DNA of 43,386 nt. Source: a virus (Duplodnaviria; Heunggongvirae; Uroviricota; Caudoviricetes). Positions 3,367-41,453 of this stretch are shown here, piece after piece; within the stretch, counting starts at the first letter, position 1, and the number at the start of each line of letters is the position of its first letter. The stretch lies in IMG/VR virus record IMGVR_UViG_2563366976_000013. One strand, given 5' to 3'. The position numbers were made by a program, and so were the translations under genes. The notes under the pieces were generated by a model. That model was not told the origin of the DNA and did no database searches. It saw only the letters and a program-made list of their open reading frames with translations.

Positions 3367-3394
3367 ACCCGCAATATTTTGCGGGCTTTTTTTT
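3367..3394 (+). terminator. Rho-independent terminator oriented for plus-strand (antisense to late operon)
   Basis: Stem CCCGCAA/TTGCGGG followed by T8 on plus strand; minus-strand version lacks U-run. Confidence 0.45.
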
Positions 3395-6300
3395 AACGTT
3401 CTTCCAGAGACTGAACCCGCTCTTTTATCTTATCCATTTCTCTGCGCTGCCATGCTGCCTCGATATAGAATAAGAGATCAGGTCTGACCCCCCATCTAGA
3501 TCCTGCTGGCGTTATTTCAACGCGCTCAATGATGTCTTCTATTACCATCACTGGATTATCATCCTCATCAACAATGATGCTCCCGTCATTATCAGTCAGC
3601 GGCATTTCCCTTTGGCCAGTAATGACGTCATCATATACTGCGGGATAATCGTCATAGCAAAGAAAGGCATAGCGGCATGTTGTGCTTTCTTCTTCCATGA
3701 GTCCGTGAGAAATAAGAACATCACGAAGTTGCTGCGCGATTACACCATGATGTATCCTCGCCCCTTCTTCCCCCTTTATAGCGACAGCGTTCAGCCATTT
3801 ATAAGCGATATACCTGACGTCACCCCAGGCATCCAGCAATGCTTCGTCAGGAGAGACCGGCTCTGTCTTTAATGTTCCGTCACTGGTAACCACAGGATTG
3901 GAGCCAAGATAAACTATCGAGAACCTGTTTCCCGGACCACCAAGAGCATTTACATTATCAAGATAAGGTTTAACATCTCCGTTCTCAAAAAGATGTTCGA
4001 GTGCGTTATATACCGCGCGACGTGGAGTACTGCTTCCGGAACCATGCAACGTTATCATTGCACCATCTGCTGAAGACGTTGTTTCACCGCCGCTAACGAT
4101 TAATCTCTGAGCGGTAACATCATCAGACGGTACTTTCTTCGCAATAATGGCGTAATTACCCTCAAGTTTGACTTCCGCGCGAACTTGTCCTGATGTACCT
4201 GCATGGACAGTCAGTGACTGGACGGCAACATCATCTGTGAAATCAACGGGTACAGGAACCGTCCTCACGCCTGACGTCGACATAAAAGTAGGAAGCGTTC
4301 TGTTAGGAGTGGCTCCGTAGACAAAATCCCTTGAAACAAATTCTTCCTGTTTAATTTTCACCCTGAAACAATACAAATCAGCCGGGTGACCATCGTGAAC
4401 ATAAGGATATTTTCTGTTGTTATCCCCTATGCTCCATGGGTTTAGAAAGTCTTCCCCACCGAAAATGTAGTACAGCCAGTTGTCTTTGATACAAACTGAA
4501 CCAACACCAACCGCAGAGTTAACTATTCCGCCCTGATAAATCTGATCAGTAACATTAACCCACTCTACATTATCCAGACTCCACTCATTGACGTTAACTC
4601 TGGTCATAAATGTTCTTGGATAATTTCCTGCATAACGGTTATCAGGTTCTCCTCCTTCCCACTCACCAAATGCGCGCTCACTGCCAAAAATAATCAGCTC
4701 ATCGCCAACTTTGGCAAAAGGAAGGTTTGAGTGATGAACATTATTTGGGAAGCGAAGAGAATTCCATGATGTACCTAAATCAGAGCTTCTGTGCAATGAA
4801 CTACCGGGTTGAGTACTTAATGTCCCCCTGGTCGTCAGATACAGAATGCCATCATAATATTTTACACATGGCTCAGATGCATTCGCCTCATATTCTACAG
4901 GTATGCGTCTGCGAACAAAGCTACCAGGAGAACCGAAAGCATCAGAGAAATAGAGTATCCCAAGCTCGCGTGGACCAATATCACCATTATGGTAGCCAAC
5001 AGCAAAACTGTTATCGCTAATCGTCGCAAAACTGTGAATCTCAGTAACAGGAGTGCTTCCGTCAACAAAAGAAGGAATAGTTCCAAGACTGGTTTTTCTC
5101 CATGGTGACGAGTGAAATGATGTGCCAAAACTCCAGTATCTACCCTCGTTATTCTGATCCACATCCTGGGTATTTTGCGTCGTAACTGTAAAGGTATTTT
5201 TATCAATAACAGTAGTCACCGTCATATTCCCGGTAACACCTGTAACACCAGAGTTTGAGAAGTTGACAAAATCACCAGCAAATAATCCGTGATCAGTAAT
5301 GCGAATATAAGCGACTTGCTGATTTGCTGCTTTCGTTATACCACCATAAACGCGAAGGCTGCGACTCATTGGGCGATCCCACAACTCTGCAACCTGCAGT
5401 TTATTTCCTCTCACGGTCCGCGTCTCAATTACAGCAAAAAGGCGATTTCTGACAACCCCCATACTCATGCAGTGATAGTTAACTGTGGGATAGTTTTTAT
5501 GTAAATCTGTAAGCCATTCCGGCGTTGTCCAGGTCTTCCCGTCATCTCCTGAGCGAACCCATGCAACATGGAGGTTATTTACACCATGGCGGTCTCCAGC
5601 CATAAAAGGCGCATAGATGACATTGTCATATACAAACGTTTTATCCTGCGTCCAGGCGTTGTACCACGGTGTATCTGTAATTTTAAATAACTCTCCCTGG
5701 ATAAAATCTTCAGAAGCATAAAAAAGAGGCTGGCCCGGTATTCTCTCAAATAAAAAACGAGCATTTTTAAATCGACTGACATCCGGAAGAGTTGATACTT
5801 TAAAAGTAAGCCCTAATCCGTCAATTTTATAACCTGGAGATGAGGCTTCAAGGCACGCGCTTATTGCAGTGGAATCGTCATTTATACCATCACCAACAGC
5901 TCCAAAATCTTTGGGGCTAATAGCATCACGCATTTTATCCTGGAACGTTCGGTACACAGCCCCAGAACCATACTGAATAAACCAACCAAAACCACCAACA
6001 ACTCCGGAGATTGCAGCATCGACATAATTACGCATTGAGCGATTATTTACAGCGTCCTGCTCAAATGATGGATCTGCAAGGTTAGAAATTTTGTTTTGCT
6101 TTGCATCGTAATATTTTGCAAGCAAAGATGGTTTCATCAATGCACGTCTGAACCACCCAAAACATTGCTGGATCAGCATCGTCAGGTAGTCAAAGGCATC
6201 TTCATGCACTTCGGGGAAAAATTTTCCCTGATTGCGAAGGTCTGTGTCCTGCACTACATCAAGCACACGATCTATCGTAATTCGCCATCCAGTAGCAAGC

Positions 6301-6512
6301 GGAGACGGAAGAACCACAGAACCGCCACTATAAGTGCCCGCCCCAGTTACCGTATAACCGGTATCCAGAACCAATTCTGTTACGTTTCCGTTCAGGTCAG
6401 ACACCTGAACAACCAGGTCTGATTTTCTGAAAATTCGAAAAGTATACGGAAACGATGTCGTAACGCCGTTACCGGTGTATTCGTTGTGGTCAACTTCGGT
6501 TGAGACCGTCAT
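3393..6512 (-). CDS. Tailspike: endo-N-acetylneuraminidase (endosialidase, K1 polysialic acid capsule depolymerase) with T7 gp17-like N-terminal adaptor and C-terminal intramolecular chaperone domain
   Basis: Long colinear matches to K1-phage endosialidase as recalled from memory (GQPLFYASEDFIQGELFKITDTPWYNAW, TVNYHCMSMGV, C-terminal ARIHHGVIAQQLRDV...CRYAFLCYDDYP); N-terminal region resembles T7 tail-fibre N-domain; RBS GGAG. Confidence 0.85.
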   Translation of the reverse strand: MTVSTEVDHNEYTGNGVTTSFPYTFRIFRKSDLVVQVSDLNGNVTELVLDTGYTVTGAGTYSGGSVVLPSPLATGWRITIDRVLDVVQDTDLRNQGKFFPEVHEDAFDYLTMLIQQCFGWFRRALMKPSLLAKYYDAKQNKISNLADPSFEQDAVNNRSMRNYVDAAISGVVGGFGWFIQYGSGAVYRTFQDKMRDAISPKDFGAVGDGINDDSTAISACLEASSPGYKIDGLGLTFKVSTLPDVSRFKNARFLFERIPGQPLFYASEDFIQGELFKITDTPWYNAWTQDKTFVYDNVIYAPFMAGDRHGVNNLHVAWVRSGDDGKTWTTPEWLTDLHKNYPTVNYHCMSMGVVRNRLFAVIETRTVRGNKLQVAELWDRPMSRSLRVYGGITKAANQQVAYIRITDHGLFAGDFVNFSNSGVTGVTGNMTVTTVIDKNTFTVTTQNTQDVDQNNEGRYWSFGTSFHSSPWRKTSLGTIPSFVDGSTPVTEIHSFATISDNSFAVGYHNGDIGPRELGILYFSDAFGSPGSFVRRRIPVEYEANASEPCVKYYDGILYLTTRGTLSTQPGSSLHRSSDLGTSWNSLRFPNNVHHSNLPFAKVGDELIIFGSERAFGEWEGGEPDNRYAGNYPRTFMTRVNVNEWSLDNVEWVNVTDQIYQGGIVNSAVGVGSVCIKDNWLYYIFGGEDFLNPWSIGDNNRKYPYVHDGHPADLYCFRVKIKQEEFVSRDFVYGATPNRTLPTFMSTSGVRTVPVPVDFTDDVAVQSLTVHAGTSGQVRAEVKLEGNYAIIAKKVPSDDVTAQRLIVSGGETTSSADGAMITLHGSGSSTPRRAVYNALEHLFENGDVKPYLDNVNALGGPGNRFSIVYLGSNPVVTSDGTLKTEPVSPDEALLDAWGDVRYIAYKWLNAVAIKGEEGARIHHGVIAQQLRDVLISHGLMEEESTTCRYAFLCYDDYPAVYDDVITGQREMPLTDNDGSIIVDEDDNPVMVIEDIIERVEITPAGSRWGVRPDLLFYIEAAWQRREMDKIKERVQSLEER

Positions 6513-6616: not shown

Positions 6617-6631
6617 TTACCTTTCAGGTAA
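6617..6631. promoter_or_regulatory. Operator-type palindrome TTACCtttcaGGTAA
   Basis: Perfect 5-5-5 inverted repeat; same motif family as cI/cro operators. Confidence 0.5.
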
Positions 6632-6707: not shown

Positions 6708-6965
6708 ATGCAGCAGTATCACTATCCACTGGAAGACGGATTTACCGAAAGGATTCACACGCCGGGAGGCGTCAGGTCACTGGTGGAGGGATCGCACTTG
6801 ATGAAATTACTCCGGGATCTCGATAAGGATGGATTTAATGTCGATGGCCCACTTGCCGAACTGACTGCACTGATTAACTACGTCACCAGCTCACAGATGT
6901 CTATGCAGGATCTGCAAACACATCTCGACTATTGTGCCGAACAATTACGAAAACAAACCAGATAA
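6708..6965 (+). CDS. Small SOS-controlled antirepressor-like protein (standalone version of the Ant C-terminal domain)
   Basis: 85 aa from ATG 6708 with RBS GGAGAAG; aligns with C-terminal about 80 aa of the three Ant paralogs (PL..G..IH.P.GV..L.E.S.LM.LL..L..DG..V.G..AELT....Y......DLQTH..Y). Confidence 0.6.
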   Translation: MQQYHYPLEDGFTERIHTPGGVRSLVEGSHLMKLLRDLDKDGFNVDGPLAELTALINYVTSSQMSMQDLQTHLDYCAEQLRKQTR

Positions 6966-6968
6966 GGT

Positions 6969-7011
6969 TTGCAATTACCAAATGGAGTGCTTATATTTAC
7001 CTTTGCGGTAA
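6969..7011 (+). promoter_or_regulatory. Promoter for ant1 leader with overlapping operator
   Basis: -35 TTGCAA (6969-6974), 17-bp spacer, -10 TATATT (6992-6997), palindrome TTACCtttgcGGTAA 6997-7011 over the start site. Confidence 0.55.
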
Positions 7012-7038
7012 ATTTACATCGCACTCCTCTTGTGCCAT

Positions 7039-7090
7039 AGTAATCAGGCACTGGCAAAATCCAGTGCCGGGATTGGTCTCCCGGATTACT
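7039..7090 (+). ncRNA. Conserved structured leader RNA element upstream of ant1 (three-way junction fold), followed by leader terminator
   Basis: AGTAATC...GATTACT outer stem enclosing hairpins GGCACTGG-caaaat-CCAGTGCC and CCGGGA-ttggtc-TCCCGG; near-identical copy in ant2 leader (11160-11213, minus strand). Confidence 0.45.
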
Positions 7091-7104
7091 ACAGAGGCAC
7101 ATAT

Positions 7105-7124
7105 GCCGCATAAGCGGTTTTTTT
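7105..7124 (+). terminator. Leader terminator/attenuator upstream of ant1
   Basis: Short GC stem GCCGC-ataa-GCGG followed by T7 run; analogous stem plus T7 in ant2 leader. Confidence 0.45.
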
Positions 7125-7278
7125 ATGTGTAAAGCGCACCTATTCTATGGTGGGCTGTGTGGGGGCACCGAAAGGTGCGCCGGGTTCCTTTGTAGCCGGT
7201 AAGACCAACTCTGCACAGTTCACCACCATCTGATTGGTCTCAGCGGTGGTGATTAACCTAACTACAAAGGTGATCGCC

Positions 7279-7971
7279 ATGAATACCAAACCTTCCATCT
7301 TTTCCTTTGAGTCATCCTGCCAGATCCGTATGTTCATGATTGACGGAGAACCTTGGTTTGTCACCAAAGATGTGTGCAATGCTTTGAATATTGATGTTAC
7401 ACAAGCGAGAAAACTTGATAAAAAAGGCTGGAACAAAAAGGGGCTGTATTCAATACAGACCCCTGGTGGAATACAAGAACTATCCATCGTTTCAGAATCA
7501 GGTCTCTACATCCTTATTCTGCGTTGCAAAGAGGCAATGACTGAGGGAACGAGAGCATTCAGATTTCTTGAATGGGTTACAGGCGAAGTACTTCCTCAGA
7601 TCCGCCGCACCGGAAGCTACATTAAAAACTCGCTCCCGCAGGAAGAACGCATAAAGATGGTTGCCGACCAGGTAGCCAACGCCACGGCGTCAGCAGTAAT
7701 GCAGGCGATGAAGATAGAGAACAAAACCTACAGCGCCCCACTGAAGCCCGGCTACCGCAGCCTGATTCATTCGCCGTCTGGTGTTCTCGGCCTGACGGAG
7801 AACTCACTGCTGATGAATCTGCTGAACCAGTTACAGGACGACGGGCACGACGTATCGGGCGCGGCGGCGGAGCTGACCACCATGTTCTGCTACATCGTCG
7901 GTGTGAGCAAATGCCTGCGTGATATCCAGACCCACGCGGAATACATCAACGACAAGGCAGGGTTCTTCTGA
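7279..7971 (+). CDS. Antirepressor paralog 1: Bro-N/KilA-N-type N-terminal domain plus shared Ant C-terminal domain
   Basis: IDGEPWFVTKDVCNAL motif (Bro-N-like); C-terminal 100 aa near-identical to the other two paralogs; start at ATG 7279 with RBS AAAGGTGA (ORF track begins at upstream TTG 7234). Confidence 0.75.
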   Translation: MNTKPSIFSFESSCQIRMFMIDGEPWFVTKDVCNALNIDVTQARKLDKKGWNKKGLYSIQTPGGIQELSIVSESGLYILILRCKEAMTEGTRAFRFLEWVTGEVLPQIRRTGSYIKNSLPQEERIKMVADQVANATASAVMQAMKIENKTYSAPLKPGYRSLIHSPSGVLGLTENSLLMNLLNQLQDDGHDVSGAAAELTTMFCYIVGVSKCLRDIQTHAEYINDKAGFF

Positions 7972-8014
7972 CGGGCGGCGGCACAGGGATGTGCCTTTAA
8001 ATAATTCTGTACGA

Positions 8015-8057
8015 TTGCAGACCGGGGGTGAATAGCGTACTATTACCTTAAAGGTAA
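8015..8057 (+). promoter_or_regulatory. Promoter/operator module (J element) upstream of YafO-like cassette 1
   Basis: -35 TTGCAG, 17-bp spacer, -10 TACTAT ending at first T of palindrome TTACCttaaaGGTAA (8043-8057). Confidence 0.5.
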
Positions 8058-8099
8058 ACCTGTTTTTATTTTATACCTGTAACTTACCGGAGATTAAAG

Positions 8100-8426
8100 A
8101 TGACAAAACTTGGATTCGTGATGAGAGGTCCGGTAAGAAGCGGAACTCATGCAAAGCGTAGCAAGAGTCGTATTTTTACTGGTAAGGTTGTAGCACGTAA
8201 ATCAGCTATTGGCTCGTTCAATAGTGAAAATGCGGCATTGCGCCATATTTTTATCAGCACAAAGCCAAGAGCATCCGCTGATGTGCATACAATGTCTATT
8301 CCTATCACAAAGAATATAAAGCGGATAAAAAAGCTCTCATCTGCAGAATCAAAAGAGATATCTTTCCGCCAGCTTAACTCATTAGAAACGCATATGAAGG
8401 AAGAGGAATTCGATGTTTTTGAGTGA
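8100..8426 (+). CDS. Putative antitoxin/partner protein of YafO-like toxin 1 (basic, no recognised fold)
   Basis: 108 aa, RBS GGAG, overlaps toxin start by 14 nt (translational coupling); weak similarity to partner of cassette 2 (ARKSAIGSFNSE vs ARRSFNGSVE). Confidence 0.35.
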   Translation: MTKLGFVMRGPVRSGTHAKRSKSRIFTGKVVARKSAIGSFNSENAALRHIFISTKPRASADVHTMSIPITKNIKRIKKLSSAESKEISFRQLNSLETHMKEEEFDVFE

Positions 8427-8925
8427 GTATAGCGGGAAGGTTATACCTACTGGTGAGTTTAAAACTGATGACTTTCTGATTTCGCTAAAAGATGCTTTTA
8501 AACAACACTGGCGTCATGGTCATCATCCTGATCTGGGAAAAGATACTCTTTTTGAAAGACCAGAGGAAGTATTAGGCTTCCATCTCAGAAAGGTTCATGT
8601 CAATATTGGTGAATATGCATCATATTCATACTCATGTACTGAACAGTGTTGGGATGAGTGGTCATATGGATTGATTGATGAACAAGGAAATTACAGGCCA
8701 AAACCAACCAGTAACGCATATCTCATATATGCAGTCAATGAAATAAGAGATGCAGCCTTACTAGCTTATTGGGACCCGCCCGCACACACCAAAGCTAACG
8801 CAAAAGTTTGGATGGATTCCGTATTGAATTTCACAAAATTATTTCATGAACGAACGAATACAGCTCCACTTAGTAGAAATGTTTATCCGTGGGATTATTC
8901 GTACAAATCCAAAAAGCCTGCATAG
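8413..8925 (+). CDS. YafO-like toxin domain protein, copy 1 (type II toxin, ribosome-dependent mRNA interferase family, by motif)
   Basis: Motifs W.HGHHPDLGKD..FERP...L.FHLRKVHV and AYLIYAV...DAALLAYWDPPAH resemble YafO from memory; paralog of 9440..9985; RBS AAGAGGAA. Confidence 0.5.
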   Translation: MFLSEYSGKVIPTGEFKTDDFLISLKDAFKQHWRHGHHPDLGKDTLFERPEEVLGFHLRKVHVNIGEYASYSYSCTEQCWDEWSYGLIDEQGNYRPKPTSNAYLIYAVNEIRDAALLAYWDPPAHTKANAKVWMDSVLNFTKLFHERTNTAPLSRNVYPWDYSYKSKKPA

Positions 8926-8935
8926 TAGTTTTTTA

Positions 8936-9155
8936 TGGACGAAACAAAAGTCAGTGCTACACTCATTGACGCCACATTGAGGTGGCTTATAGATGGAAAT
9001 TTCACAATGAAAAAAGCATTTGCTGCACTGTTCGTTTTGTTGTCTCTGGTAGCGTCAACTCAGGCCTTTGCCGGTCGTTGTCAGCACGACAGCGACACTG
9101 CTGCTGACGGCTCCCGCTGCGGTGGGCGTTCTGCGGATTCCCGCCCGGGCGGCGG
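8936..9155 (+). repeat. Direct repeat copy A (220 bp, one mismatch to copy B at 10007..10226)
   Basis: Identical sequence block containing small signal-peptide ORF; seen directly. Confidence 0.9.
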
Positions 9156-9174
9156 CACAGGGATGTGCCTTTAA
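9007..9174 (+). CDS. Small secreted Cys-containing peptide (55 aa) or gene fragment, copy 1
   Basis: Signal peptide MKKAFAALFVLLSLVASTQAFA then about 30-aa mature part with Cys residues; ends inside J junction sequence; weak RBS. Confidence 0.3.
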   Translation: MKKAFAALFVLLSLVASTQAFAGRCQHDSDTAADGSRCGGRSADSRPGGGTGMCL

Positions 9175-9205
9175 ATAATTCTGTACAGATTGCAGGTGAA
9201 TAGCG

Positions 9206-9225
9206 TACTATTACCTCAAGGGTAA
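9206..9225 (+). promoter_or_regulatory. -10 TACTAT plus operator palindrome TTACCtcaagGGTAA upstream of cassette 2
   Basis: Same J module as at 8038-8057. Confidence 0.5.
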
Positions 9226-9285
9226 ACGGATTGGTTTCATTTTTATTAATCCGTGTAATGAACTTATGAGATATGAGGTAATGTC

Positions 9286-9465
9286 ATGCGAAACGAAAAA
9301 TTGCAGATGCGTAGAGCGCAAGCTGCCGCAAGACGTTCTTTCAATGGAAGCGTAGAGTACGTAAAAGTTACTATGACAAAAGATCACGCAAGTCGCGTAT
9401 CCCGCGCTTTCTTTGATTCTCGTAACAATAAGGAAAATTATGAGTTCGTCTGCGTCGCAGAATGA
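9286..9465 (+). CDS. Putative antitoxin/partner of YafO-like toxin 2 (59 aa, below ORF-track cutoff)
   Basis: ATG 9286 with RBS GAGGT 8 nt upstream; overlaps toxin 2 start by 26 nt; manual translation MRNEKLQMRRAQAAARRSFNGSVEYVKV... Confidence 0.3.
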   Translation: MRNEKLQMRRAQAAARRSFNGSVEYVKVTMTKDHASRVSRAFFDSRNNKENYEFVCVAE

Positions 9466-9985
9466 TAAAAATCAAATTGTCAGATATAAGGGTCGAGTAT
9501 TGCATACGCAAAATTTCTCGGCCCTTTGTGCATCTGATCTTGAGCTGAAGAAAGTATCTGATGCCTTTACCCAGTATTGGAAAACGGGATACCATCCATC
9601 TCTTGGTAAAGATGCTGCATTTGCTCGTCCGACAGAAATGCTTAAACTAAATGTCAGGCATACTCATGTCGATAACCAAGACTATATTCCAGAAGATAGT
9701 GATAAAAAACACACTGGTAAAAAATCATCTTGGGATGCATGGAAAAATATAGCGTCTGTGCAAGTAAAATGCATACCAACAAGTGATTGCTTTTTAGTTT
9801 ATTCGGTAAATCACAATCGTGATGCGCTGGTTATGTTTTTTGTTGACGCAGATGCCCACAACATAACTGAGCAAGAAGAGTTTAAAGAGGCAGCAATCAC
9901 TATCAGTTATCAATTCTTTGAGAAAACAAAAACAGAACCAATGCCTTTAGAAGAAGATCTTTTTTCTGATAAATGGAAGGAATAG
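9440..9985 (+). CDS. YafO-like toxin domain protein, copy 2
   Basis: Motifs W.TGYHPSLGKD..FARP...L.LNVRHTHV and CFLVYSV...DALVMFFVDADAH; start at ATG 9440 with RBS AAGGA; followed by terminator. Confidence 0.5.
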   Translation: MSSSASQNDKNQIVRYKGRVLHTQNFSALCASDLELKKVSDAFTQYWKTGYHPSLGKDAAFARPTEMLKLNVRHTHVDNQDYIPEDSDKKHTGKKSSWDAWKNIASVQVKCIPTSDCFLVYSVNHNRDALVMFFVDADAHNITEQEEFKEAAITISYQFFEKTKTEPMPLEEDLFSDKWKE

Positions 9986-10005
9986 CCCGCAGCGCGGGCT
10001 TTTTT
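9984..10005 (+). terminator. Rho-independent terminator after toxin 2
   Basis: AGCCCGC-agc-GCGGGCT stem followed by T5. Confidence 0.6.
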
Positions 10006-10006
10006 G

Positions 10007-10226
10007 TGGACGAAACAAAAGTCAGTGCTACACTCATTGACGCCACATTGAGGTGGCTTATAGATGGAAATTTCACAATGAAAAAAGCATTTGCTGCACT
10101 GTTCGTTTTGTTGTCTCTGGTAGCGTCAACTCAGGCCTTTGCCGGTCGTTGTCAGCACGACAGCGACACTGCTGCTGACGGCTCACGCTGCGGTGGGCGT
10201 TCTGCGGATTCCCGCCCGGGCGGCGG
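10007..10226 (+). repeat. Direct repeat copy B
   Basis: 220 bp, one mismatch vs 8936..9155. Confidence 0.9.
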
Positions 10227-10239
10227 TGGCATTCGTTAA
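10078..10239 (+). CDS. Small secreted Cys-containing peptide, copy 2 (variant C-terminus)
   Basis: Same signal peptide and mature region as copy 1; differs only in last 5 residues. Confidence 0.3.
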   Translation: MKKAFAALFVLLSLVASTQAFAGRCQHDSDTAADGSRCGGRSADSRPGGGGIR

Positions 10240-10312
10240 AAACAAGGCCGCGAAAGCGGCCTGTGACATGTCACGATAGTTTCGTTTTGCACATCCCTGT
10301 GCCGCCGTTCTG

Positions 10313-10969
10313 TCAGAAGAACCCTGCTTTGTCGTTGATGTATTCCGCGTGCGTCTGGATATCACGCAGGCATTTGCTCACACCGACGATGTAGCAGAAC
10401 ATGGTGGTCAGCTCCGCCGCCGCGCCCGATACATCGTGCCCGTCTTCCTGCAACTGGTTCAGCAAATTCATCAGCAGTGAGTTCTCCGTCAGGCCGAGAA
10501 CACCAGACGGCGAATGAATCAGGCTACGGTAGCCGGGCTTCAGTGGGGCGCTGTATTCTTTTTTGTCTTCCAGCTTGATCGCCTCCATAATGGCGGGCAT
10601 GAAGCCTGACAAGACCTTCTCCACTTTTGTTTCTTGTTGTCTTAAACGTTTCTCGCATTCAATGAAGTAGCGTCGCACCTGGCGACCTTTTTCGTTACGC
10701 TCGACCATCGCCAGCTCTTTGGCTGTATCAAGGGTGAGGTGGTACTCTTTGCGGTTGTGGCCGCCTCTACCAGATGTTTGCTTTCCCAAATTGGAAAGCA
10801 AAATATAGTCTTGATTTTCAATGAATTCGTATTCTGATATGCGATTTGTAATCCATGCTGCAAACACCTTTTTAACACCTAAAAAAGCGTGCAGATCGCG
10901 GGCATTACAAAGTAGGGCTGTTTCGTTAGATATAGTGCCGTTGAATACGGGGATGAGTTGAGCGTTCAT
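10313..10969 (-). CDS. Antirepressor paralog 2: AntA-type N-terminal domain plus shared Ant C-terminal domain
   Basis: N-terminus [23 protein letters not shown], middle [20 protein letters not shown]; C-terminus near-identical to ant1 and ant3; RBS GGAGACG. Confidence 0.75.
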
Positions 10970-11125
10970 GATGGCGTCTCCACTTAGCGAATTACATCAC
11001 CACCGCTGAGACCAATCAGATGGTGGTGAACTGAACGGAGTTGGTCTTACCGGCCTAAGTGGTACCGGCGTCCTTTCGGACCCCCATTCAGCCCACCATA
11101 ATTCTGGCATGACTGTGCTATACGC

Positions 11126-11285
11126 ATAAAAAAACCACGTCTGGCGTGGTATGCGCCACTTAGTAATCCGGGAGACCAATCCCGGCACTGGATTTTGCCA
11201 GTGCCCGATTACTATGGCACAAGAGGAGTGCGATGTAAATTTACCGAAAAGGTAATGATAAACGCTAAGAAATATTAAAATCAAC
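11126..11285 (-). promoter_or_regulatory. ant2 promoter, operator (11241-11255), structured leader (11160-11213) and leader terminator (11126-11150)
   Basis: Mirror image of ant1 control region with near-identical structured element; palindrome TTACCgaaaaGGTAA. Confidence 0.5.
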
Positions 11286-11402: not shown

Positions 11403-11750
11403 GTGCCATTCCACGGCGCAGAGCTTTATGTTGTCAATCACAACGGCGAACCGTATACCCCAATGAAACCTATCGTTGAGGGAATGGGGCTAGACTGGAA
11501 ATCTCAACATAAGAAGATTTCTCAACGCTTCTCGAAGGGTATGGTGGAAATCACCATACCTTCTGCCGGTGGGGTGCAAGCCATGATTTGTATGGCTTTA
11601 CGAAAATTGGCAGCTTGGTTGAACAGCATCAGCCCTAACAAAGTCCGTCCTGAAATCCGCGAAAGTATTGAAACATCAACCGTGTCGATATCGATACGGT
11701 TGATTATGACGGTAACTTATTGCCGTGTGTCCTATTTCTCCCACCACTAA
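11403..11750 (+). pseudogene. Probable remnant of an antirepressor N-terminal domain gene (truncated)
   Basis: GTG start; first 90 aa look like a conserved phage antirepressor N-domain (FHGAELYVVNHNGEPYTPMKPIVEGMGLDW), then low-complexity tail; near-palindrome at 11677-11702 at the break. Confidence 0.35.
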
Positions 11751-12065: not shown

Positions 12066-15000
12066 TTACTTCATCACCGGATCCACCTGGTTTATTAGTG
12101 GCGCAATCCAGAACAGGTTATTGCCGGGTATCAGGGTTCGGACATTATGCACAATACGATCACCGGCATCACCATTCAACACTCCTGAGGTCACATCAAT
12201 GATGCTATCCGCAAGACCAAATGACGGTCCGAATAGAGATCCTACGAATCCACGACTGGCATACCTGGACTGTGTGCCAGTGCCAAATAAAGCCCCCAGC
12301 CCAACAGCACCACCAGTCGCCTTTTCAGCCATGTTGTTATATTCCATCAATGGCCCAAGAATACCGGATCTATCTATACCCTCAAGCACCAGCTTCTCTG
12401 GTGACCAGTCAACATTTTTCCCTTTCGATGCTTCTTTAAGCGCATAGACCAGTGAGCCAAGAGCAATCTGAAATGCAGTGCCATAATAAAATTGCGCAGT
12501 TCCTTCCTGTAACCCACCAAGTAGCGCACGGTTGTATGAAGCCGTTGTGAATGATTTAAACTGAAATATCGTTCGCCCCATTGGAGTACTCGCCCATAAA
12601 GGTGTGTCACCAATACCGGGGGTGATGATAGTGTTATTAACGTCTTTCAGAACCGCTGACTGGAATACTCCGGCAACGTACTGATCGTCCCATTTATCAA
12701 AGTTACCAATGTGCCATCCATCAATTACCTCACCATGTTTCTCGAACTCACTGCGAATACGCGCAGCCATATTGTCGTTGATACCGAGTTTTGCCAGGCG
12801 GCGTGCAGGAAATGCACCGGACAAAATACCGTCTGAAATAACCATTCCGTTCATGGATTTGTTTATGTCATTAAAGCGATCCATGAGTGTCAGCTTGCCG
12901 AAGGCATCAGTAATTCGCTCCATTCCGGCTTCGACTGCTGTTGTCCTGGAAGAGCTGTCAACAAGATCACCAATTGCACGAGAGCGTGAATGCAGTACAG
13001 TTTCCAGTCCGATACCCATCTTCAACATCTCTTCTTTGCTGGCCTTAAATGCCGGTGATTGGGATATCTGAGAAGCATAGCCTTTCATGGTGTTACGGAA
13101 ACCATTAACCATAACCCCTCTGGCCAGATCTGGAATAGCTGATACTGTCATTCCACCGAGTTTGGTCGTGAAGTTCACATCCCGCAGAAAAGCGCCAGCA
13201 CGAACAAAAAACGAAGACGGATCATCAGGCATCCCATATGTACCAACAAGACGATCGCGTAATGCTGTTATGTCTCTGAGATCATTTGCTCTTGATTTTG
13301 AAAGTCTGGACTGTTCTTTCCGTAATTCCTTTTCGTACTTTCGCATTAATGAATCGAGTTTACCCTGAGGAACAACTTCACCATTGCTCTCATAACGTGC
13401 TTTCAGATTTGCCACACTTTCGTCATATTTCGCCTTTATTTTTTCAGGCACTTCCCGTAACAGACTGTCATATTCGTCCTCAATTAATTGCAGACGCTCA
13501 GTCATAGTTCGTTTGCCAAATGTTCTCGTCAACTCAATTTCTGCTGCCGCTTCACGGATATGACGTTGCAGCACGTAATTCACATCACTTTCAAGATAAT
13601 CCCTGATAAGACTATCAGGAACATTTAATGTTCTTTCTTTCGTACTACCTGCGGCTTTTACAGAAAATACGCTGACAAAATCCTGTGGAACCTTAGCACC
13701 AGTAATTTTATTAATTACGATATCTGCTGCAATTTCAGCATCCTCAGGAACCAGTGTTTTATTTCCTCTCGACCACCAGTCAACCAAAATACGTCGAAAT
13801 TTATCGCGTTCACTGATTATTTTTCCAACTTTATATATGCGTGGGAAATAGCTTGCCTGGCCTAATGCTTTCAGTTCTTCATCTGGCGGCAATAAACCAA
13901 GCTTTTGCATTTCAACTTTCACCCGATTTAATACAGTTCGCATCGCCTGCGCCGTTTCCTGAACAACAGGATTAGCATGCACATCACCGCTTCGCATAGC
14001 ATTCCCAACCTGCTGACGAAATGAATCAAAACTCATGTCACCACCATCAGCTTTATACTTTGCGTATGCCTGTTTATTTCCGACAACAACAGCAGCTTCT
14101 TCACGCTGCCATCCACGTGTACGGGTTTCTACAGCTACCGGTGTTTCAATCCCCCTTTCATTTCCTTTAAGGGTGAAATTATTTTCGGCTAACTCCAGCG
14201 TTGTTTTTCGCACTGTCCTGGACGGAGACTCCATTAACCTTGTCAAAGGAGTAAGATAGCTCCCTGCTTTCCATGCAGCCTTTCCAACCACCCCACCAGA
14301 AACAGGGGTTAAATCATCCAGAGTCGCTGTATCAATTTTCATAGCACCAACACTACCACCATCGGAAAGCGAAGCGGCAGCCCTGTCAGTCACTGATGTA
14401 ATGCTCATATTATCAAGAGCATCAGCAACCTCACGTGTGGCTGCAGCCCGGACGGATGGCGAAAGCGCAACACCAGCACTGGCAAACACGCCGCTCATTA
14501 TCGCACCCGCTGCAACGTGAGCGGCACTTTCACCCCATGAGCGTGTTATTTGCTGATTATTCAGTACAACCTCGCTTAATGCAGTACCGGCAGCACCAAT
14601 CGCAATCTGTGAGCCAATACGCGCCAGTGCCCCTCCTTGAGCACCTGGGATAAACATTGACGCAACAGTAACCGGGTCAAAAAGCATCGCTGTTGCACTG
14701 GCAATTCCACCAGCTAAGCCTGCTTCAGAGATAAAACGCCGATCTTCATTTTCATCATCTATCTGCTGCTTAATCCACGCTGTTTCTTCTGGCGAGCGGG
14801 AACCTGCAAATTTCGCACCCCAGTATTCATAGCCGTGCAACTCATTTTTATCAGCATATGGGTTATAACCCTCGACCGGTTCAAACTGTCTGGCAGGACG
14901 GAAAAAACCAGCCAGAATATTGTTCTGTCGTATTGCTGCGGCAAGCAATGAAGGCTCTTTTTGGCGAGGCTCAGGGTTCTTACCTTCTGGCGGATGCACA

Positions 15001-15089
15001 TCAAAACTCTGTTCATCAGGTTCAGGAATGGCGCGACCAGCAGAAATAAATCCGTTATTGTTTGATTCAGATACAGGATAGAACGGCAT
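12066..15089 (-). CDS. Large internal virion/DNA-ejection protein (T7 gp15/gp16-class)
   Basis: 1007 aa, position after other internal virion proteins and before tail fibre region; Gly/Ala-rich segments. Confidence 0.55.
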   Translation of the reverse strand: MPFYPVSESNNNGFISAGRAIPEPDEQSFDVHPPEGKNPEPRQKEPSLLAAAIRQNNILAGFFRPARQFEPVEGYNPYADKNELHGYEYWGAKFAGSRSPEETAWIKQQIDDENEDRRFISEAGLAGGIASATAMLFDPVTVASMFIPGAQGGALARIGSQIAIGAAGTALSEVVLNNQQITRSWGESAAHVAAGAIMSGVFASAGVALSPSVRAAATREVADALDNMSITSVTDRAAASLSDGGSVGAMKIDTATLDDLTPVSGGVVGKAAWKAGSYLTPLTRLMESPSRTVRKTTLELAENNFTLKGNERGIETPVAVETRTRGWQREEAAVVVGNKQAYAKYKADGGDMSFDSFRQQVGNAMRSGDVHANPVVQETAQAMRTVLNRVKVEMQKLGLLPPDEELKALGQASYFPRIYKVGKIISERDKFRRILVDWWSRGNKTLVPEDAEIAADIVINKITGAKVPQDFVSVFSVKAAGSTKERTLNVPDSLIRDYLESDVNYVLQRHIREAAAEIELTRTFGKRTMTERLQLIEDEYDSLLREVPEKIKAKYDESVANLKARYESNGEVVPQGKLDSLMRKYEKELRKEQSRLSKSRANDLRDITALRDRLVGTYGMPDDPSSFFVRAGAFLRDVNFTTKLGGMTVSAIPDLARGVMVNGFRNTMKGYASQISQSPAFKASKEEMLKMGIGLETVLHSRSRAIGDLVDSSSRTTAVEAGMERITDAFGKLTLMDRFNDINKSMNGMVISDGILSGAFPARRLAKLGINDNMAARIRSEFEKHGEVIDGWHIGNFDKWDDQYVAGVFQSAVLKDVNNTIITPGIGDTPLWASTPMGRTIFQFKSFTTASYNRALLGGLQEGTAQFYYGTAFQIALGSLVYALKEASKGKNVDWSPEKLVLEGIDRSGILGPLMEYNNMAEKATGGAVGLGALFGTGTQSRYASRGFVGSLFGPSFGLADSIIDVTSGVLNGDAGDRIVHNVRTLIPGNNLFWIAPLINQVDPVMK

Positions 15090-17797
15090 TATTTAGATCC
15101 CCACGAAAAGTAATCTTTAAATTTGTCCATACGTTCGTTATGCAGGCGCTGATACTGCTCATCCAGAGCACGATGCTTGTCTTTGAAGTTTTGTATAGCC
15201 TGTCCACGCATAATTTCTTCCTGCTCGTGCTGCTCCCGTTCCTGCTGCATTTTCTTATAAGGTTCCCAATCTTCTAGTGATGGCCCCCAGCGCATCAGTC
15301 TTCCATGCTTGTCATAAAATAAATCATCCCTCGTAATACCATCTTTATCTTTTGTTCTGATCACAACTGAATAAAGCTTATCTCTCGGAGTTGATAAATC
15401 AGGAACAAGAATCAACTCACCTCCAACCAGTGAGCGTGGTGTATTCAGTCCCAATGCACCAGCCTCAGTTGAAGGTCGGTTAAATGAAGGAGCTGGTTTA
15501 TGCAAGTCATCGCCATACATGATTTTTTCTTTTTCAGCTTTCCATTGCGCTGCAATCCAGCCTGACGGCCCATATTGATAAAGCGCCTCCGGTGCATATT
15601 TCATAAACTGTGCTTCCCCGTTGACCTCGCTGATACTCCAGGTGCGGGCTATCTGCTGGTTGGTCATTTGCTTCGCTACGTCAGCGTTACCACCAGCAAG
15701 GCGATAGTTAACGTCATACAGCATCTGATAGTCATTGCGAAAGAGCGCTGCTTCCGGCGTCTGGTCATCCGCAGACGGATCCCAGCGAAGCCAATGAGCC
15801 ATATTGCTGACAGCAGAATTGGCTGCGCTGTCACGCTCTTTTTTGTATTCTCTTGTACTCTGAACAGATGAGAGCTGCGCCCTTAGTGCATCTGTCTGGT
15901 TGTATGTCTTACTCTGCGCTTCCACAATAGCAGCATCAGAAGACATCCCTGCATCAGTTAGTTGCTTAACAGTCAGATAAAAACCCTGCATATCCTTCGG
16001 CATATTTCCAATAGATGCATTGTCTGTTTCATATAACCGACTAAACAGTTCCGCCGCATTTTTAACCACTTCCTGATTGCTGGATCGGGATACTGCTGAA
16101 AGCTGCGTGATGACCTGCGAAGGCATTATGCCAGTCTGAGCCACAAGCCGAACAACCCCATCATGAGTGGAGGCATCATTAATACGAAAGTTCTGCGCCA
16201 TTTCTGTGTAATCAGCAGCTTTCTGCATTGACTTGTTGCTTGGGTCTAATTTTTCACCTATTGTCAGCGCCTCATTGAATCTGCGTGAATCCCGTTGCGC
16301 CTGAATTGCTTCATTTGATCTCTGAAGCAATGCAGACAATTTTCCGTAAGCATCGAGTTTTAACGCATAGTGAGGATCGTTAACCTCAGGCTTCACTTTC
16401 TGCATTTCTTCTTGCTGCTGAGAAGGAGGCAAATACTGAATTGCCTGGAATATTCTCGCGTTATCAATCGCTATATCCAGTTGATTGATTATTTTATCTG
16501 CGTTTTTTCCATACCCCCTGATGATGGTCTCCTGAGCCGGTATATAATCTGGAACCTCACCGTTATATAGCTGGGCCATGGTGTTATTAATAGCTGGCTC
16601 AAGCTGTTCTAATATTAACTTCCTTTGCTTTTCTATCTGACTATTAGCAAGGTTATCTATTTGATAAATAGTCAGCGGATCCATTCCAGTTTTATTTTTT
16701 CTATATCGGGAAAGCCACCCTTGTGTTTCTGATGGAAGATTTCGGATAAATTCTTCTTCTGATATTTCACCTTTACGCGGATCACCGACTTTGGCGATCA
16801 GTTTATCCACGTTACCCATCCCCCAGTTATATGCTGCTCCGGTCAATATTTCTGAGCCGTACTTACCATACAGTTGATTTACATAGTCACTGGCAAGCAT
16901 TTCATGCTGTTGTTCGTCCGTAGGGTTGTATTCAACGCCACGTTTGGCCGCCAGTTCTTTCCCTGTGCCCGGCATTAACTGGTATTTCCCCTGGGCCCTC
17001 TCTCCAGAAGATGTTTTCGGTCCTTCAAGAATACTACCATCAGGATTAAAGTGACGATCACCTGATTCAACAAGGCGTATGGCACGCATGTCCATGCCTC
17101 CAGAATCATTTTTCTGAAACTGACCATTTAACCATCCTTCCGGGTTAGCAGCGGCATAATTCTTCGCCCGCATTTCTGTGGCACTGCGATCATCACTTTC
17201 TATTTCTTCCAGAATGCGTTCTTGTGACCATCCCCTGGCTGCTCCATATCTGGCAATGGCTACCATTCTGGAATTTCTGGCTAAAGTGGCAGTTTGCGGG
17301 TCATTCCAGGCATCCGCTTCATTTTGTATCCATAATTTTCTCGTTGCCTGATATTGCTCATCTTCATAGGCATTTGTCTGCCCTATCTCATGTCTGAGAA
17401 CTCCAGTACTGAACTGAATTTTCTGTGTTCTGGCTTGTTGCAAAAACATATTTCTTGCTGCTTCATCAGTCAATGAAGCAGCTATTTCTTCCACATCCTG
17501 ATCAAATCCAGATATGTACTCTTGCCCCTTACCAATCGCATTTTTGCCTTGTTGTGCATAAAAACCGGTTTGAGGGTTATAAAGACGTTCATTGCTGCGC
17601 TGATTAAGCTGAAGTATGGCATCCTGAGACAATGCAACATTCGCTTTCTGCCTGGCTTCACCATATGCCACCGCATACTGATCTGCGACATTCGCCAGCA
17701 CCTGACCTGCTTGAGGAACATCGAAGATCTGAAAACCACCGGTTTGCACACCACGACTTTGCACCTGGCGTCCGGATGTAGTAGGAACAACAGGCAT
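15089..17797 (-). CDS. Internal virion protein with soluble lytic transglycosylase (SLT) domain
   Basis: 902 aa; SLT-like motif GERAQGKYQLMPGTGKEL...AAYNWGMGNV; position in ejection-protein block. Confidence 0.65.
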   Translation of the reverse strand: MPVVPTTSGRQVQSRGVQTGGFQIFDVPQAGQVLANVADQYAVAYGEARQKANVALSQDAILQLNQRSNERLYNPQTGFYAQQGKNAIGKGQEYISGFDQDVEEIAASLTDEAARNMFLQQARTQKIQFSTGVLRHEIGQTNAYEDEQYQATRKLWIQNEADAWNDPQTATLARNSRMVAIARYGAARGWSQERILEEIESDDRSATEMRAKNYAAANPEGWLNGQFQKNDSGGMDMRAIRLVESGDRHFNPDGSILEGPKTSSGERAQGKYQLMPGTGKELAAKRGVEYNPTDEQQHEMLASDYVNQLYGKYGSEILTGAAYNWGMGNVDKLIAKVGDPRKGEISEEEFIRNLPSETQGWLSRYRKNKTGMDPLTIYQIDNLANSQIEKQRKLILEQLEPAINNTMAQLYNGEVPDYIPAQETIIRGYGKNADKIINQLDIAIDNARIFQAIQYLPPSQQQEEMQKVKPEVNDPHYALKLDAYGKLSALLQRSNEAIQAQRDSRRFNEALTIGEKLDPSNKSMQKAADYTEMAQNFRINDASTHDGVVRLVAQTGIMPSQVITQLSAVSRSSNQEVVKNAAELFSRLYETDNASIGNMPKDMQGFYLTVKQLTDAGMSSDAAIVEAQSKTYNQTDALRAQLSSVQSTREYKKERDSAANSAVSNMAHWLRWDPSADDQTPEAALFRNDYQMLYDVNYRLAGGNADVAKQMTNQQIARTWSISEVNGEAQFMKYAPEALYQYGPSGWIAAQWKAEKEKIMYGDDLHKPAPSFNRPSTEAGALGLNTPRSLVGGELILVPDLSTPRDKLYSVVIRTKDKDGITRDDLFYDKHGRLMRWGPSLEDWEPYKKMQQEREQHEQEEIMRGQAIQNFKDKHRALDEQYQRLHNERMDKFKDYFSWGSK

Positions 17798-26755: not shown

Positions 26756-26792
26756 TTGACATTTAACGCACAAATTATTACCTTTTAGGTAA
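26756..26792. promoter_or_regulatory. -35-like TTGACA and operator palindrome TTACCttttaGGTAA at terminase-portal moron
   Basis: Palindrome 26778-26792; TTGACA at 26756-26761 on plus strand. Confidence 0.4.
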
Positions 26793-27114: not shown

Positions 27115-27191
27115 GTGGCATTAGCTCAGTTGGACAGAGCAACCGCCTTCTAAGCGGTTGGTCGCAGGTTCGAATCCTGCATGCCACGCCA
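27115..27191 (+). tRNA. tRNA-Arg (anticodon UCU, reads AGA)
   Basis: Manual cloverleaf: acceptor GTGGCAT/ATGCCAC, D-arm GCTC/GAGC, anticodon stem ACCGC/GCGGT with loop CTTCTAA, T-arm GCAGG-TTCGAAT-CCTGC, discriminator G, CCA encoded. Confidence 0.85.
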
Positions 27192-36260: not shown

Positions 36261-36491
36261 TCATGAGTAGAAGAAGTATGCCAGTTCTGCTTTTGAGCGC
36301 AGCCATTGTCTTGTTTTACAGGCTTTAAAAAGCCCATTCATCAATACCTTACCTGGCATTTTGCGCTTACCTGTTAAGTGAGTCTGGATATAGTGACTCG
36401 TCGTTCCGGCTTCCTGTGCGAAGGCTTCACGCTCATCCGGAGTAAGTGCAAGCCAGTGCTTTTTGAAATCGAAATGTCCGTTATCGCTCAT
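36261..36491 (-). CDS. Cro-like HTH regulator
   Basis: 76 aa, first gene of early-right operon divergent from repressor gene. Confidence 0.5.
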   Translation of the reverse strand: MSDNGHFDFKKHWLALTPDEREAFAQEAGTTSHYIQTHLTGKRKMPGKVLMNGLFKACKTRQWLRSKAELAYFFYS

Positions 36492-36527: not shown

Positions 36528-36590
36528 TCACCCATAAGGTAACAAAAATCAAGGATAGTTACCTGTGGGGTGCATTTACCTGTTGGGTAA
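36528..36590. promoter_or_regulatory. Tripartite immunity operator O1-O3 with divergent promoters
   Basis: O1 TCACCcataaGGTAA (36528-36542), O2 TTACCtgtggGGTGC (36559-36573), O3 TTACCtgttgGGTAA (36576-36590); minus-strand -35 TTGTTA / -10 TATTAT overlaps O1. Confidence 0.55.
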
Positions 36591-36645: not shown

Positions 36646-37230
36646 ATGAAAAGTATCCAGGACGTCCGCAGGCAAAATCTCAACGACTTGATCGACCGTG
36701 AATTCAATGGTGTTCAGACGCGGATGGCAGAAAAACTTGGAACTCAGGCAAATCTGGTAAACCGCTGGGCTCTTGGCAAGAAGGTTATCGGCGACCAGGT
36801 TGCACGAAAAATTGAAGCTGCCGCCAATAAACCCCGTAACTGGCTTGATATTGATCGTTCGCTTTCTCAGGAGGGTTTTCAGCCTGTCGGCCCGAGCGAT
36901 ATAGGTCAGCTGGCGGCTCACAACCTGGAACGCTGGATGAGCGAAAGCCGCGACCTTTCAACACAGGGAAAACTTCACCGCGCATCCGGCGTCGCCCAGG
37001 TGACAATCAGCCGCCTGTTAAACAATGAGGTCAGCGTTTCCATTTCCACCCTGGAGAATGTTGCATCCGCATTCGGGCGTCACGGATATGAACTACTGAT
37101 TCACCCGCACGACCCTGCGACTATCAACTATGACCGCTCGCGCTACGCATTGTTACCCGAAACCGAGAAAGCAAAGATCGAAAGTTACATTGAATTTGTC
37201 ATCAACCAGAACGAAAAAAGCAAAAAATAA
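36646..37230 (+). CDS. CI-like repressor with two HTH regions and no recognisable LexA/S24-type self-cleavage domain
   Basis: 194 aa; HTH-like segments near residues 20-45 and 115-140; C-terminus lacks Ala-Gly/Ser..Lys peptidase signature; divergent from Cro-like gene. Confidence 0.55.
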   Translation: MKSIQDVRRQNLNDLIDREFNGVQTRMAEKLGTQANLVNRWALGKKVIGDQVARKIEAAANKPRNWLDIDRSLSQEGFQPVGPSDIGQLAAHNLERWMSESRDLSTQGKLHRASGVAQVTISRLLNNEVSVSISTLENVASAFGRHGYELLIHPHDPATINYDRSRYALLPETEKAKIESYIEFVINQNEKSKK

Positions 37231-41129: not shown

Positions 41130-41453
41130 AATCACGCCTGACGAATCGCGATTATCTCGCTATTGGTATTGCAGAGATTGCTGGACTCAGTGGCGCATGA
41201 TTTGACAATGCCGCCAGAGCTATCGCATACTGACCGCACTAGAACTTCAAAGCGGTCACCCGCACCCGATAGCTTTGCGGCTTTTTTATGCCTGCAATTT
41301 GGCATAGTCACATCCGTACAAAGGTCGGGTGGAGAGGCGTAATACAATACCCAAAAGGGGAATATGCCCGGAGCGTCTTTGAAGGCTCTAGTTGACACCC
41401 GATCACCAGCTACTAACTGGTGATTGCTAACTAAAACTTCAAAGGAGGTCATC

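Follow-up and report, generated by a model that had tools for sequence, protein, structure and literature searches.

The 43,386-nucleotide (nt) viral sequence IMGVR_UViG_2563366976_000013 of the IMG/VR database, hereafter the window, is an epsilon15/phiV10-type podovirus prophage of Escherichia coli (genus Uetakevirus) that carries two adjacent cassettes, in each of which a small partner gene (U1 or U2) precedes and overlaps a gene for a YafO-like protein (T1 or T2) and the promoter is fused to the palindrome TTACC-N5-GGTAA. We consider it reasonably probable that these are repressor-gated, type II toxin-antitoxin (TA)-like cassettes, silent in the lysogen and expressed once repression is relieved; the same degree of confidence, set for this explanation as a whole, covers the assignment of the region to an accessory (immI-type) locus of a Uetakevirus-like prophage. 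Along its first 20 kb the window matched Escherichia phage TL-2011b at 95.5% identity (66% covered), as well as vB_EcoP_ZX5, phiV10 and relatives. The cassette region has a tail-fibre gene on its left (3393-6512) and large virion/ejection-protein genes on its right (12066-17797), all on the minus strand, and its order from the left is operator-promoter, isrK, C4 and antL, followed by a hairpin, an UP-like tract, promoter, operator, U1, T1 and a miniprotein gene, then by the same layout with U2, T2, a terminator and a second miniprotein gene, and lastly by the convergent antR, C4, isrK and operator-promoter. The relatives compared comprised 72 viral loci and several genome loci (~80 loci altogether), and 5,426 complete E. 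coli genomes were screened in addition. Features that a sequence-only reading of the window had described were present at, or within a few bases of, the positions given for them.

T1 (8413..8925, plus strand, 170 amino acids (aa)) and T2 (9440..9985, plus strand, 181 aa) are YafO-like toxin homologues of the RelE superfamily and, in agreement with the sequence-only reading, paralogues of each other (E 7e-28, identity 32%). Both matched phrog_1651, a family of 'unknown function', at ~1e-52 each, and T2 scored above the cut-off of the Pfam family YafO_toxin PF13957 (25.9 bits, E 1e-5; gathering score 25), with T1 linked to the YafO family because of its identity to T2 and their common phrog_1651 membership. 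Close homologues already carry the RefSeq name 'type II toxin-antitoxin system YafO family toxin', whilst NCBIfam and PADLOC returned no match for T1 or T2. An alignment of 33 sequences of the T family (A1), spanning 31-80% divergence, retained 23 invariant positions, including His/Arg/Glu candidates. Searched against 1.84 billion representative proteins, the A1 profile found just 98 clusters at E <= 1e-3, the top ~45 of which were long forms (165-200 aa), followed by proteins of 120-150 aa; five of six checked matches from this shorter group were canonical YafO by Pfam PF13957 (52-93 bits) and one was without a Pfam match. Canonical YafO proteins of 131-144 aa were retrieved by the 33-member family profile at E 1e-8 to 1e-4, and hhalign aligned A1 with E. 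coli K-12 YafO over 110 columns (E 3.7e-4).

Four residues (F43, G56, H76 and H140) were invariant across T1, T2, T3 (a third subfamily described below) and six canonical YafO proteins, including that of K-12, with D58, P64 and Y121 near-invariant, such that the signature common to T and canonical YafO consists of F, the G of FG[KR]D, the H of HxH and the H of AH. The T proteins have the RelE-like alpha/beta fold of the RelE/ParE (BECR) superfamily, of the RelE/HigB type. PDB chains searched with the T1 and T2 sequences gave no meaningful match, and Foldseek against viral predicted structures (BFVD) found no match at E <= 0.001. Judged by their sequences, T1 and T2 are long-form members of the YafO branch of the RelE/ParE superfamily, and their nuclease activity, mRNA cleavage and capacity for growth arrest are putative, by homology. 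The third subfamily, T3 (168 aa), is 44-48% identical to T1 and is paired with U3, a partner of much greater length (139-175 aa). T3 occupies a slot of its own (in loci L019, L047, L064, L068 and L077) between a solo open reading frame (ORF) for an antirepressor C-terminal domain (Ant-C) and isrK, on the opposite strand and ~2 kb upstream of the main cassette, and it too lies behind an operator, TTACC-N5-GGTA. Some phages thus carry two YafO-like cassettes, at separate sites.

The partners are real genes and obligate companions of T. U1 (8100..8426, plus strand; phrog_5933) is a 108-aa basic putative antitoxin that always lies upstream of T1-type toxins, and U2 (9286..9465, plus strand; phrog_6685) is a putative antitoxin of 59 aa. 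Their frames overlap the toxin starts by 14 nt (U1-T1) and 26 nt (U2-T2), in line with the translational coupling that had been proposed for them, and a small, overlapping or abutting partner ORF was found 5' of every T in the ~80 loci. Partner type co-varied with toxin subfamily, U1 (105-123 aa) with T1, U2 (59-60 aa) with T2 and U3 with T3, giving the adjacent small partner and conserved pairing that characterize type II TA systems. Differences among U2 orthologues fell mostly at third codon positions. Between U1 and U2 no similarity was detected by BLASTP, and none of U1, U2 and U3 had a domain in Pfam, NCBIfam or PADLOC. The N-terminal parts of the U proteins are basic and variable, and the last ~30 residues share the motif (I/V)xx(M/L)(S/T)..E.S..(I/V)S.R(M/F)...E.(F/Y)(D/E). 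Statistics for common ancestry were weak, with E 0.012 in an hhalign comparison between the U2 and U1/U3 groups; cross-family hidden Markov models (HMMs) tied U3 to the U2 group and the partner type of locus L051 to U1/U3 (0-1 of 1000 shuffles reached the score), and U1 and U2 are connected only via these U3 and L051-type intermediates.

An AlphaFold2 model of U2 alone comprised two helices and a disordered C-terminal tail (predicted local distance difference test 69, predicted template-modelling score 0.35), contained no ribbon-helix-helix, helix-turn-helix (HTH), Phd or other DNA-binding fold, and is compatible with a neutralizer that folds on binding. Neither a DNA-binding domain nor autoregulation, both expected of a type II antitoxin, was found for U1, U2 or U3, and the single palindrome at the cassette promoters is the phage-wide operator. 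Neutralization of T by U is putative and is suggested by the conserved C-terminal motif, the disordered tail and one relative, locus L049 (5233-5924), in which T2 is split by a frameshift with U2 intact, the pattern expected of a toxin-antidote pair. In keeping with the observation in the sequence-only reading that the partners are unlike YafN or RelB, hhalign of U profiles against YafN gave E 0.74 and 0.14, and an HMM of U C-termini scored neither YafN nor four other partners of canonical YafO above 12,000 shuffled decoys. Homology of the U and YafN C-termini, considered on the E of 0.14, was rejected when YafN failed to exceed shuffled sequences in the latter search. The partners are less exotic than that reading had implied, as canonical short YafO genes (131-144 aa) in unrelated genomes and metagenomes also have as their 5' neighbour an unannotated basic ORF of 54-62 aa that is not YafN-like (L082, 1322-1510; L084, 915-1082; L086, 1046-1210; L087, about 500-695). 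Short non-YafN partners may therefore be common in the YafO family, which suggests an unrecognized class of small YafO partners. Two distant phages carried a second U-like ORF directly 5' of the U-T pair (L051, about 1700-1890; L063, about 5650-5840), ending in MTKEQSKSFSD..HEFVL, which could be a tandem antidote or an orphan partner.

The promoter/operator module occurs twice, at 7972-8059 and 9146-9227, with 41 nt identical and the following 42 nt at 86% identity, save for a 7-nt deletion between -35 and -10 in copy 2 that is common to one relative (L024). Module 1 opens 3' of the ant stop codon with a short hairpin (GGCACA-GGGA-TGTGCC, 7980..7995, plus strand), which is repeated at 9154-9169 and has an inverted copy at 10289-10307, and continues with an A/T-rich UP-like tract and promoter 1 (8015..8043, plus strand; TTGCAG, 17 nt, TACTAT), whose positions are conserved in relatives. 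The operator TTACCTTAAAGGTAA (8043..8057) covers the last base of the -10 of cassette 1, and TTACCTCAAGGGTAA (9211..9225) is fused in the same way to the -10 TACTAT (9206-9211) of module 2. Throughout the window, TTACC-N5-GGTAA was found in 12 exact copies and four with one mismatch (6617, 6997, 8043, 9211, 11241, 26778, 27395, 30328, 30346, 34190, 34252, 36191, 36528, 36576, 37288 and 37350), a total of 16 against 0.71 expected that was reached in 0 of 100 shuffles. Most sites share one base with a -10-like hexamer, which ends on the first T of the palindrome.

The distribution of these sites follows the regulatory genes of the phage. Two operators (36528-36542 and 36576-36590) form immC between a Cro-like gene (36261..36491, minus strand; 76 aa, 76/76 identical to the ZX5 gene adjoining the ZX5 repressor) and a divergent cI-like repressor gene (36646..37230, plus strand; 194 aa, Pfam HTH_3 1e-9), whose product is the presumed binder of TTACC-N5-GGTAA. 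Operator pairs flank early promoters (37288/37350 and 34190/34252); others lie on the terminase side (30328/30346) and at 26778 and 27395. Some of the sites listed thus lie near the terminase-side promoter and 5' of a tRNA-Arg(UCU) gene (27115-27191). Within the cassette region, further operators stand 5' of a stand-alone Ant-C ORF (TTACCTTTCAGGTAA, 6617..6631), fused to the -10 (TATATT) of the left isrK-C4-ant unit (6997..7011) and at the right unit (11241..11255). In every U1, U2 or U3 cassette examined the palindrome directly follows the -10 despite diverged flanks (Salmonella, Serratia and other hosts), which clearly marks its position upstream of U as a phylogenetic footprint. The site layout recurs in phage vB_EcoP_ZX5, whose repressor ORF21 is identical to the 194-aa protein of the window at 192/194 positions. 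Over-expression of ORF21 reduced endolysin and holin transcripts by >99.9%, and the Bro-N antirepressor ORF4 drives ZX5 toward lysis, in a study that did not map operators (PMC9782041). Over-representation at immC and at regulated promoters together with conservation in relatives, including directly after the -10, leads us to infer strongly that the palindrome is the phage immunity operator and the putative binding site of the repressor, the condition that the sequence-only reading had set for its model; it also suggests that one repressor acts through dispersed operators in Uetakevirus, with a logic like that of P1 C1.

In the mechanism we favour, each cassette would be a bicistronic, translationally coupled operon with U first and T second. 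T, a long-form YafO-family protein, would act as an mRNA endoribonuclease, by homology, and block translation, whilst U, small, short, probably labile and largely unstructured, would neutralize T by direct binding through the conserved C-terminal segment. Transcription control would have passed from the antitoxin, U being without a detectable DNA-binding domain, to the phage, with the operator fused to the cassette -10 being the same as that at the cI/cro region, the early promoters and both antirepressor units. Because their -10 elements are fused to the immunity operator, the cassettes are predicted to stay silent under the repressor as long as the lysogen is stable. Induction, entry into a non-immune cell or inactivation of the repressor by an antirepressor would turn them on together with early and antirepressor genes, and translation would then probably be inhibited, transiently or progressively, as the phage switches to lytic growth. 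Such inhibition could serve to shut off the host, or for suicide or commitment. Repressor binding, repression of the cassette promoters and the timing of expression are all predicted. The further proposal of the sequence-only reading, that the toxins would fire on infection by a homo-immune phage, does not follow, since the resident repressor would keep both copies off. It is possible, and we advance it tentatively, that the cassettes represent a distinct regulatory class of TA system, in which the antitoxin either never possessed a DNA-binding half or has lost it, transcription is slaved to the immunity repressor and a RelE-type RNase is released specifically at the switch from lysogeny to lysis. 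Such a class could provide programmed host shut-off, or a suicide or commitment device set off by a foreign antirepressor or a failing repressor, and the immI slot would then be an exchange site for 'induction-coupled' toxins (T1, T2 and T3).

Several observations weigh against repressor-gated TA-like cassettes. T1 reached 20.1 bits on PF13957, under the gathering score that T2 exceeded. Against the single K-12 YafO sequence the hhalign probability of A1 was 36%. T1, T2, U1, U2, the miniprotein and the Ant proteins found no match among PADLOC-DB v2 defence models at E up to 1, no U resembles YafN, a Phd/YefM-family antitoxin, and a link between core U1 and core U2 was not detected by BLASTP or by cross-family HMMs. 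Both cassette promoters match the sigma-70 consensus poorly (7/12) and were missed by a promoter scan, and some leaky expression in the lysogen would be compatible with an operator at +1. Moreover, if toxin and antidote are made from one promoter, this alone does not explain the timing of free toxin.

Three other explanations were weighed. The cassettes could be ordinary prophage type II TA modules expressed in the lysogen to the benefit of prophage or host, through addiction, a stress response or abortive infection as a defence against other phages, with the palindrome modulatory or irrelevant. The RefSeq label and the bicistronic, partner-first arrangement, like that of yafNO, would fit such modules, prophage TA modules are well known as defence, a YafO-like gene of a Salmonella prophage having been discussed in this way (PMC9836087), and the cassettes sit in a moron-type, highly exchangeable slot. 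Yet the operator covers -10/+1 of every cassette and is conserved across hosts, as for tight repression, U has no DNA-binding domain with which to autoregulate, and PADLOC gave no match; we regard this explanation as rather unlikely. T could instead be an early-function phage nuclease for host mRNA turnover or takeover, or for anti-defence, with U its cofactor, regulator or specificity subunit in one enzyme complex. The predicted co-regulation with early and antirepressor genes, the strict pairing and co-variation of U and T subfamilies, the similarity of U to no antitoxin family, and the N- and C-terminal extensions and W-rich insertion of T, which canonical YafO lacks, would all suit such a complex. 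A small gene overlapping a downstream RelE-fold gene is, however, the canonical antitoxin-toxin layout, similar short partners occur at canonical YafO genes elsewhere, and the broken T and intact U of L049 fit toxin inactivation; we regard an enzyme complex as improbable.

We give very little weight to the remaining explanation, that the T proteins are inactivated RelE-fold relics and the tandem a neutral recombination scar, evolutionary baggage as a whole. The tandem is a singleton, the Pfam scores are marginal and the 7-nt deletion in the copy-2 promoter abolishes the -35 spacing seen in relatives, but the 23 invariant positions, His/Arg/Glu candidates among them, have been kept over the full range of divergence in both T subfamilies, the U reading frames are under purifying selection, and the family persists in several genera, always with the operator.

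The closest relative of the toxin among characterized systems is that of E. coli yafN-yafO, which is homologous (by Pfam, the FG[KR]D, HxH and AH motifs and the RelE/HigB fold) and is likewise encoded partner first in overlapping or abutting frames. T exceeds YafO by 40-50 residues and carries additional segments at the N-terminus, internally (a W-containing insertion, W-x2-W) and at the C-terminus (a PMPL..DLF..KW tail); the partner falls outside the Phd/YefM type of YafN and lacks a recognizable DNA-binding domain; and the cassette stands behind a phage immunity operator, whereas yafNO lies in the LexA-controlled dinB operon or is autoregulated. The locus also resembles immI of P1 and P7 (C1-controlled promoter, C4, icd and ant), in that C4-family RNAs precede the antirepressor genes, operators of the primary repressor are found at the locus promoters and scattered over the genome, as for P1 C1, and a host-toxic gene (icd) is co-expressed with ant in P1. 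P1 differs in several respects: here the locus belongs to an epsilon15-like podovirus, the operator is perfectly palindromic where the P1 C1 site is asymmetric, the isrK-C4-ant unit is present twice and inverted, and the part of toxic passenger falls to a RelE-fold TA-like pair under an operator-promoter of its own, not to a gene inside the ant transcript. Host-toxic genes of lambdoid and cryptic prophages that are silenced by the prophage repressor and freed on derepression include kil, KilR of Rac, DicB of Qin and YdaS/YdaT under RacR; these are single inhibitors of cell division or other functions, without a cognate antidote, and are unrelated to RelE/YafO in sequence and fold.

An arrangement of isrK, C4 and a Bro-N antirepressor has been described in APSE and Gifsy-1 prophages (PMC7313666, PMC4825925). 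Order is the same (isrK-C4-BRO), and the neighbouring slot there similarly receives exchangeable accessory or toxin cassettes by recombination. The APSE cassettes encode eukaryote-directed toxins (CdtB, Stx and YD-repeat), in contrast to the bacterial RelE-type toxins with partners seen here. To our knowledge, operator-gating has not been described for APSE cassettes.

Prophage TA modules are usually treated as constitutive, self-regulated defence or addiction elements. The toxin family, the gene layout and the RefSeq YafO label were already known; what is unusual is that antitoxin autoregulation has apparently given way to a phage immunity operator, which is conserved over three toxin subfamilies. 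The sequence-only reading overstated the case in naming the cassettes as the strongest candidate for an undescribed toxin-based defence or host-shutoff system, given the RefSeq label and the lack of a PADLOC match. In the literature on YafO in phages, Uetakevirus TA modules and the epsilon15/phiV10 operator, we found no description of the cassette, its partners or the operator. If the favoured mechanism is true, a RelE/YafO-type pair would belong to the phage's own repressor regulon beside the antirepressors, tying an mRNA-cleaving toxin to departure from lysogeny. The analysis also identifies a family of short YafO partners without a match in Pfam, NCBIfam or PADLOC, and the tandem illustrates that alternative cassettes can be stacked by microhomology recombination.

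Each of the 72 related viral loci carried U1-T1 or U2-T2 3' of ant, never both (TL-2011b has U2-T2 and ZX5 has U1-T1), and the T1-to-U2 junction was spanned in none of the 5,426 complete E. coli genomes, 472 of which hold one of the parts. The two pairs are alternative alleles of one slot downstream of ant, and the tandem duplication, a wording of the sequence-only reading that suggests a conserved design, is an incidental, one-off recombinant via microhomology. The joint is a 10-nt microhomology, CGGGCGGCGG (9146..9155), common to the miniprotein 3' end and the ant 3' flank (7972-7981), at which the 3' end of the miniprotein gene (…CCCGGGCGGCGG) passes into the normal sequence after the ant stop (CGGGCGGCGGCACAGGGATGTGCC…); miniprotein copy 1 therefore has a chimeric C-terminus. 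A 31-mer across the junction occurred in none of 2.9 million viral contigs and in no genome of 100,044 species, and was found once in a metagenome collection, on a contig 100% identical to the window over 7.4 kb and presumably the origin of the window sequence. An assembly artefact was considered and rejected on the length of the joint, 10 nt being shorter than assembler k-mers, and on the chimeric miniprotein 3' end.

The cassettes are enclosed by a duplicated, inverted P1-like immI, with a C4 antisense RNA 5' of the antirepressor gene on both sides. The left unit, on the plus strand, consists of an isrK-family small RNA (sRNA) (7048..7124; Rfam RF01394, 74.7 bits, gathering score 50), a C4 antisense RNA of the P1/P7 immI type (7143..7230; Rfam RF01695, 78.6 bits, gathering score 45) and AntL, a Bro-N-type antirepressor (7279..7971; Pfam Bro-N 2e-13, phrog_130 anti-repressor) whose equivalent in ZX5 is ORF4. 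On the minus strand, the right unit consists of an isrK-family sRNA (11128..11204; Rfam, 67.7 bits), a C4 antisense RNA (11019..11103; Rfam, 61.2 bits) and AntR, an AntA-type antirepressor (10313..10969; Pfam AntA 4e-26). The inverted segments that bracket the cassettes pair 7000-7253 with 10996-11252, in the leaders, and 7716-7972 with 10312-10568, the latter a 257-nt inverted repeat (95% complementary) at the C-terminal segments of AntL and AntR. The two proteins accordingly have near-identical C-terminal domains and differ in their N-terminal domains (Bro-N and AntA). This large imperfect palindrome around the cassettes could favour inversion or further recombination. The sequence-only reading had likened the position to immI of P22; the setting between tail-fibre and virion/ejection genes stands, whilst the phage is epsilon15/phiV10-like and the locus, with its C4 RNAs, is nearer to immI of P1.

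Downstream of each toxin gene lies one copy of a 227-nt direct repeat (8929..9155 and 10000..10226, both plus strand; 99% identical) encoding, as that reading had noted, a signal-peptide miniprotein (53-55 aa; phrog_14503, 'membrane associated protein'). The miniprotein gene spans 9007-9174 in copy 1, which has the chimeric 3' end, and 10078-10239 in copy 2. A strong intrinsic terminator follows T2 (9984..10000, plus strand), and a terminator hairpin (10245..10262, minus strand) separates the second miniprotein gene from the convergent ant gene. No operator accompanies the promoter-like TTGACG-16-TATAGA of the miniprotein gene (8966-8993 in copy 1), and this gene is probably a small moron in its own right, independent of the operator. 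In two metagenomic U1-T1 relatives (L003/L004, 6557-6940), a gene with a Rap1a domain (type VI secretion system immunity-like) takes the miniprotein's place.

Additional antirepressor-related genes were observed around the locus and elsewhere in the window. The stand-alone Ant-C ORF (6708..6965, plus strand; 85 aa, tblastn identity of 40-44% to both Ant C-termini) has its own operator-promoter, with the operator at 6617, is conserved in most related phages and could modulate Ant or the repressor. A third antirepressor (41424-42104), with an AntA domain and 86% identical to AntR, adjoins the integrase gene and is preceded by an Rfam sRNA-Xcc1 match (41323-41412, 62.9 bits) in place of isrK/C4; sRNA-Xcc1 is paired with an ORF6N-type protein in some APSE phages (PMC7313666). 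Next to the right isrK unit, on its outer side, lies a truncated antirepressor fragment of the P22_AR_N type (11403-11750, 115 aa, Pfam 7e-32) that looks like a remnant of another ant allele.

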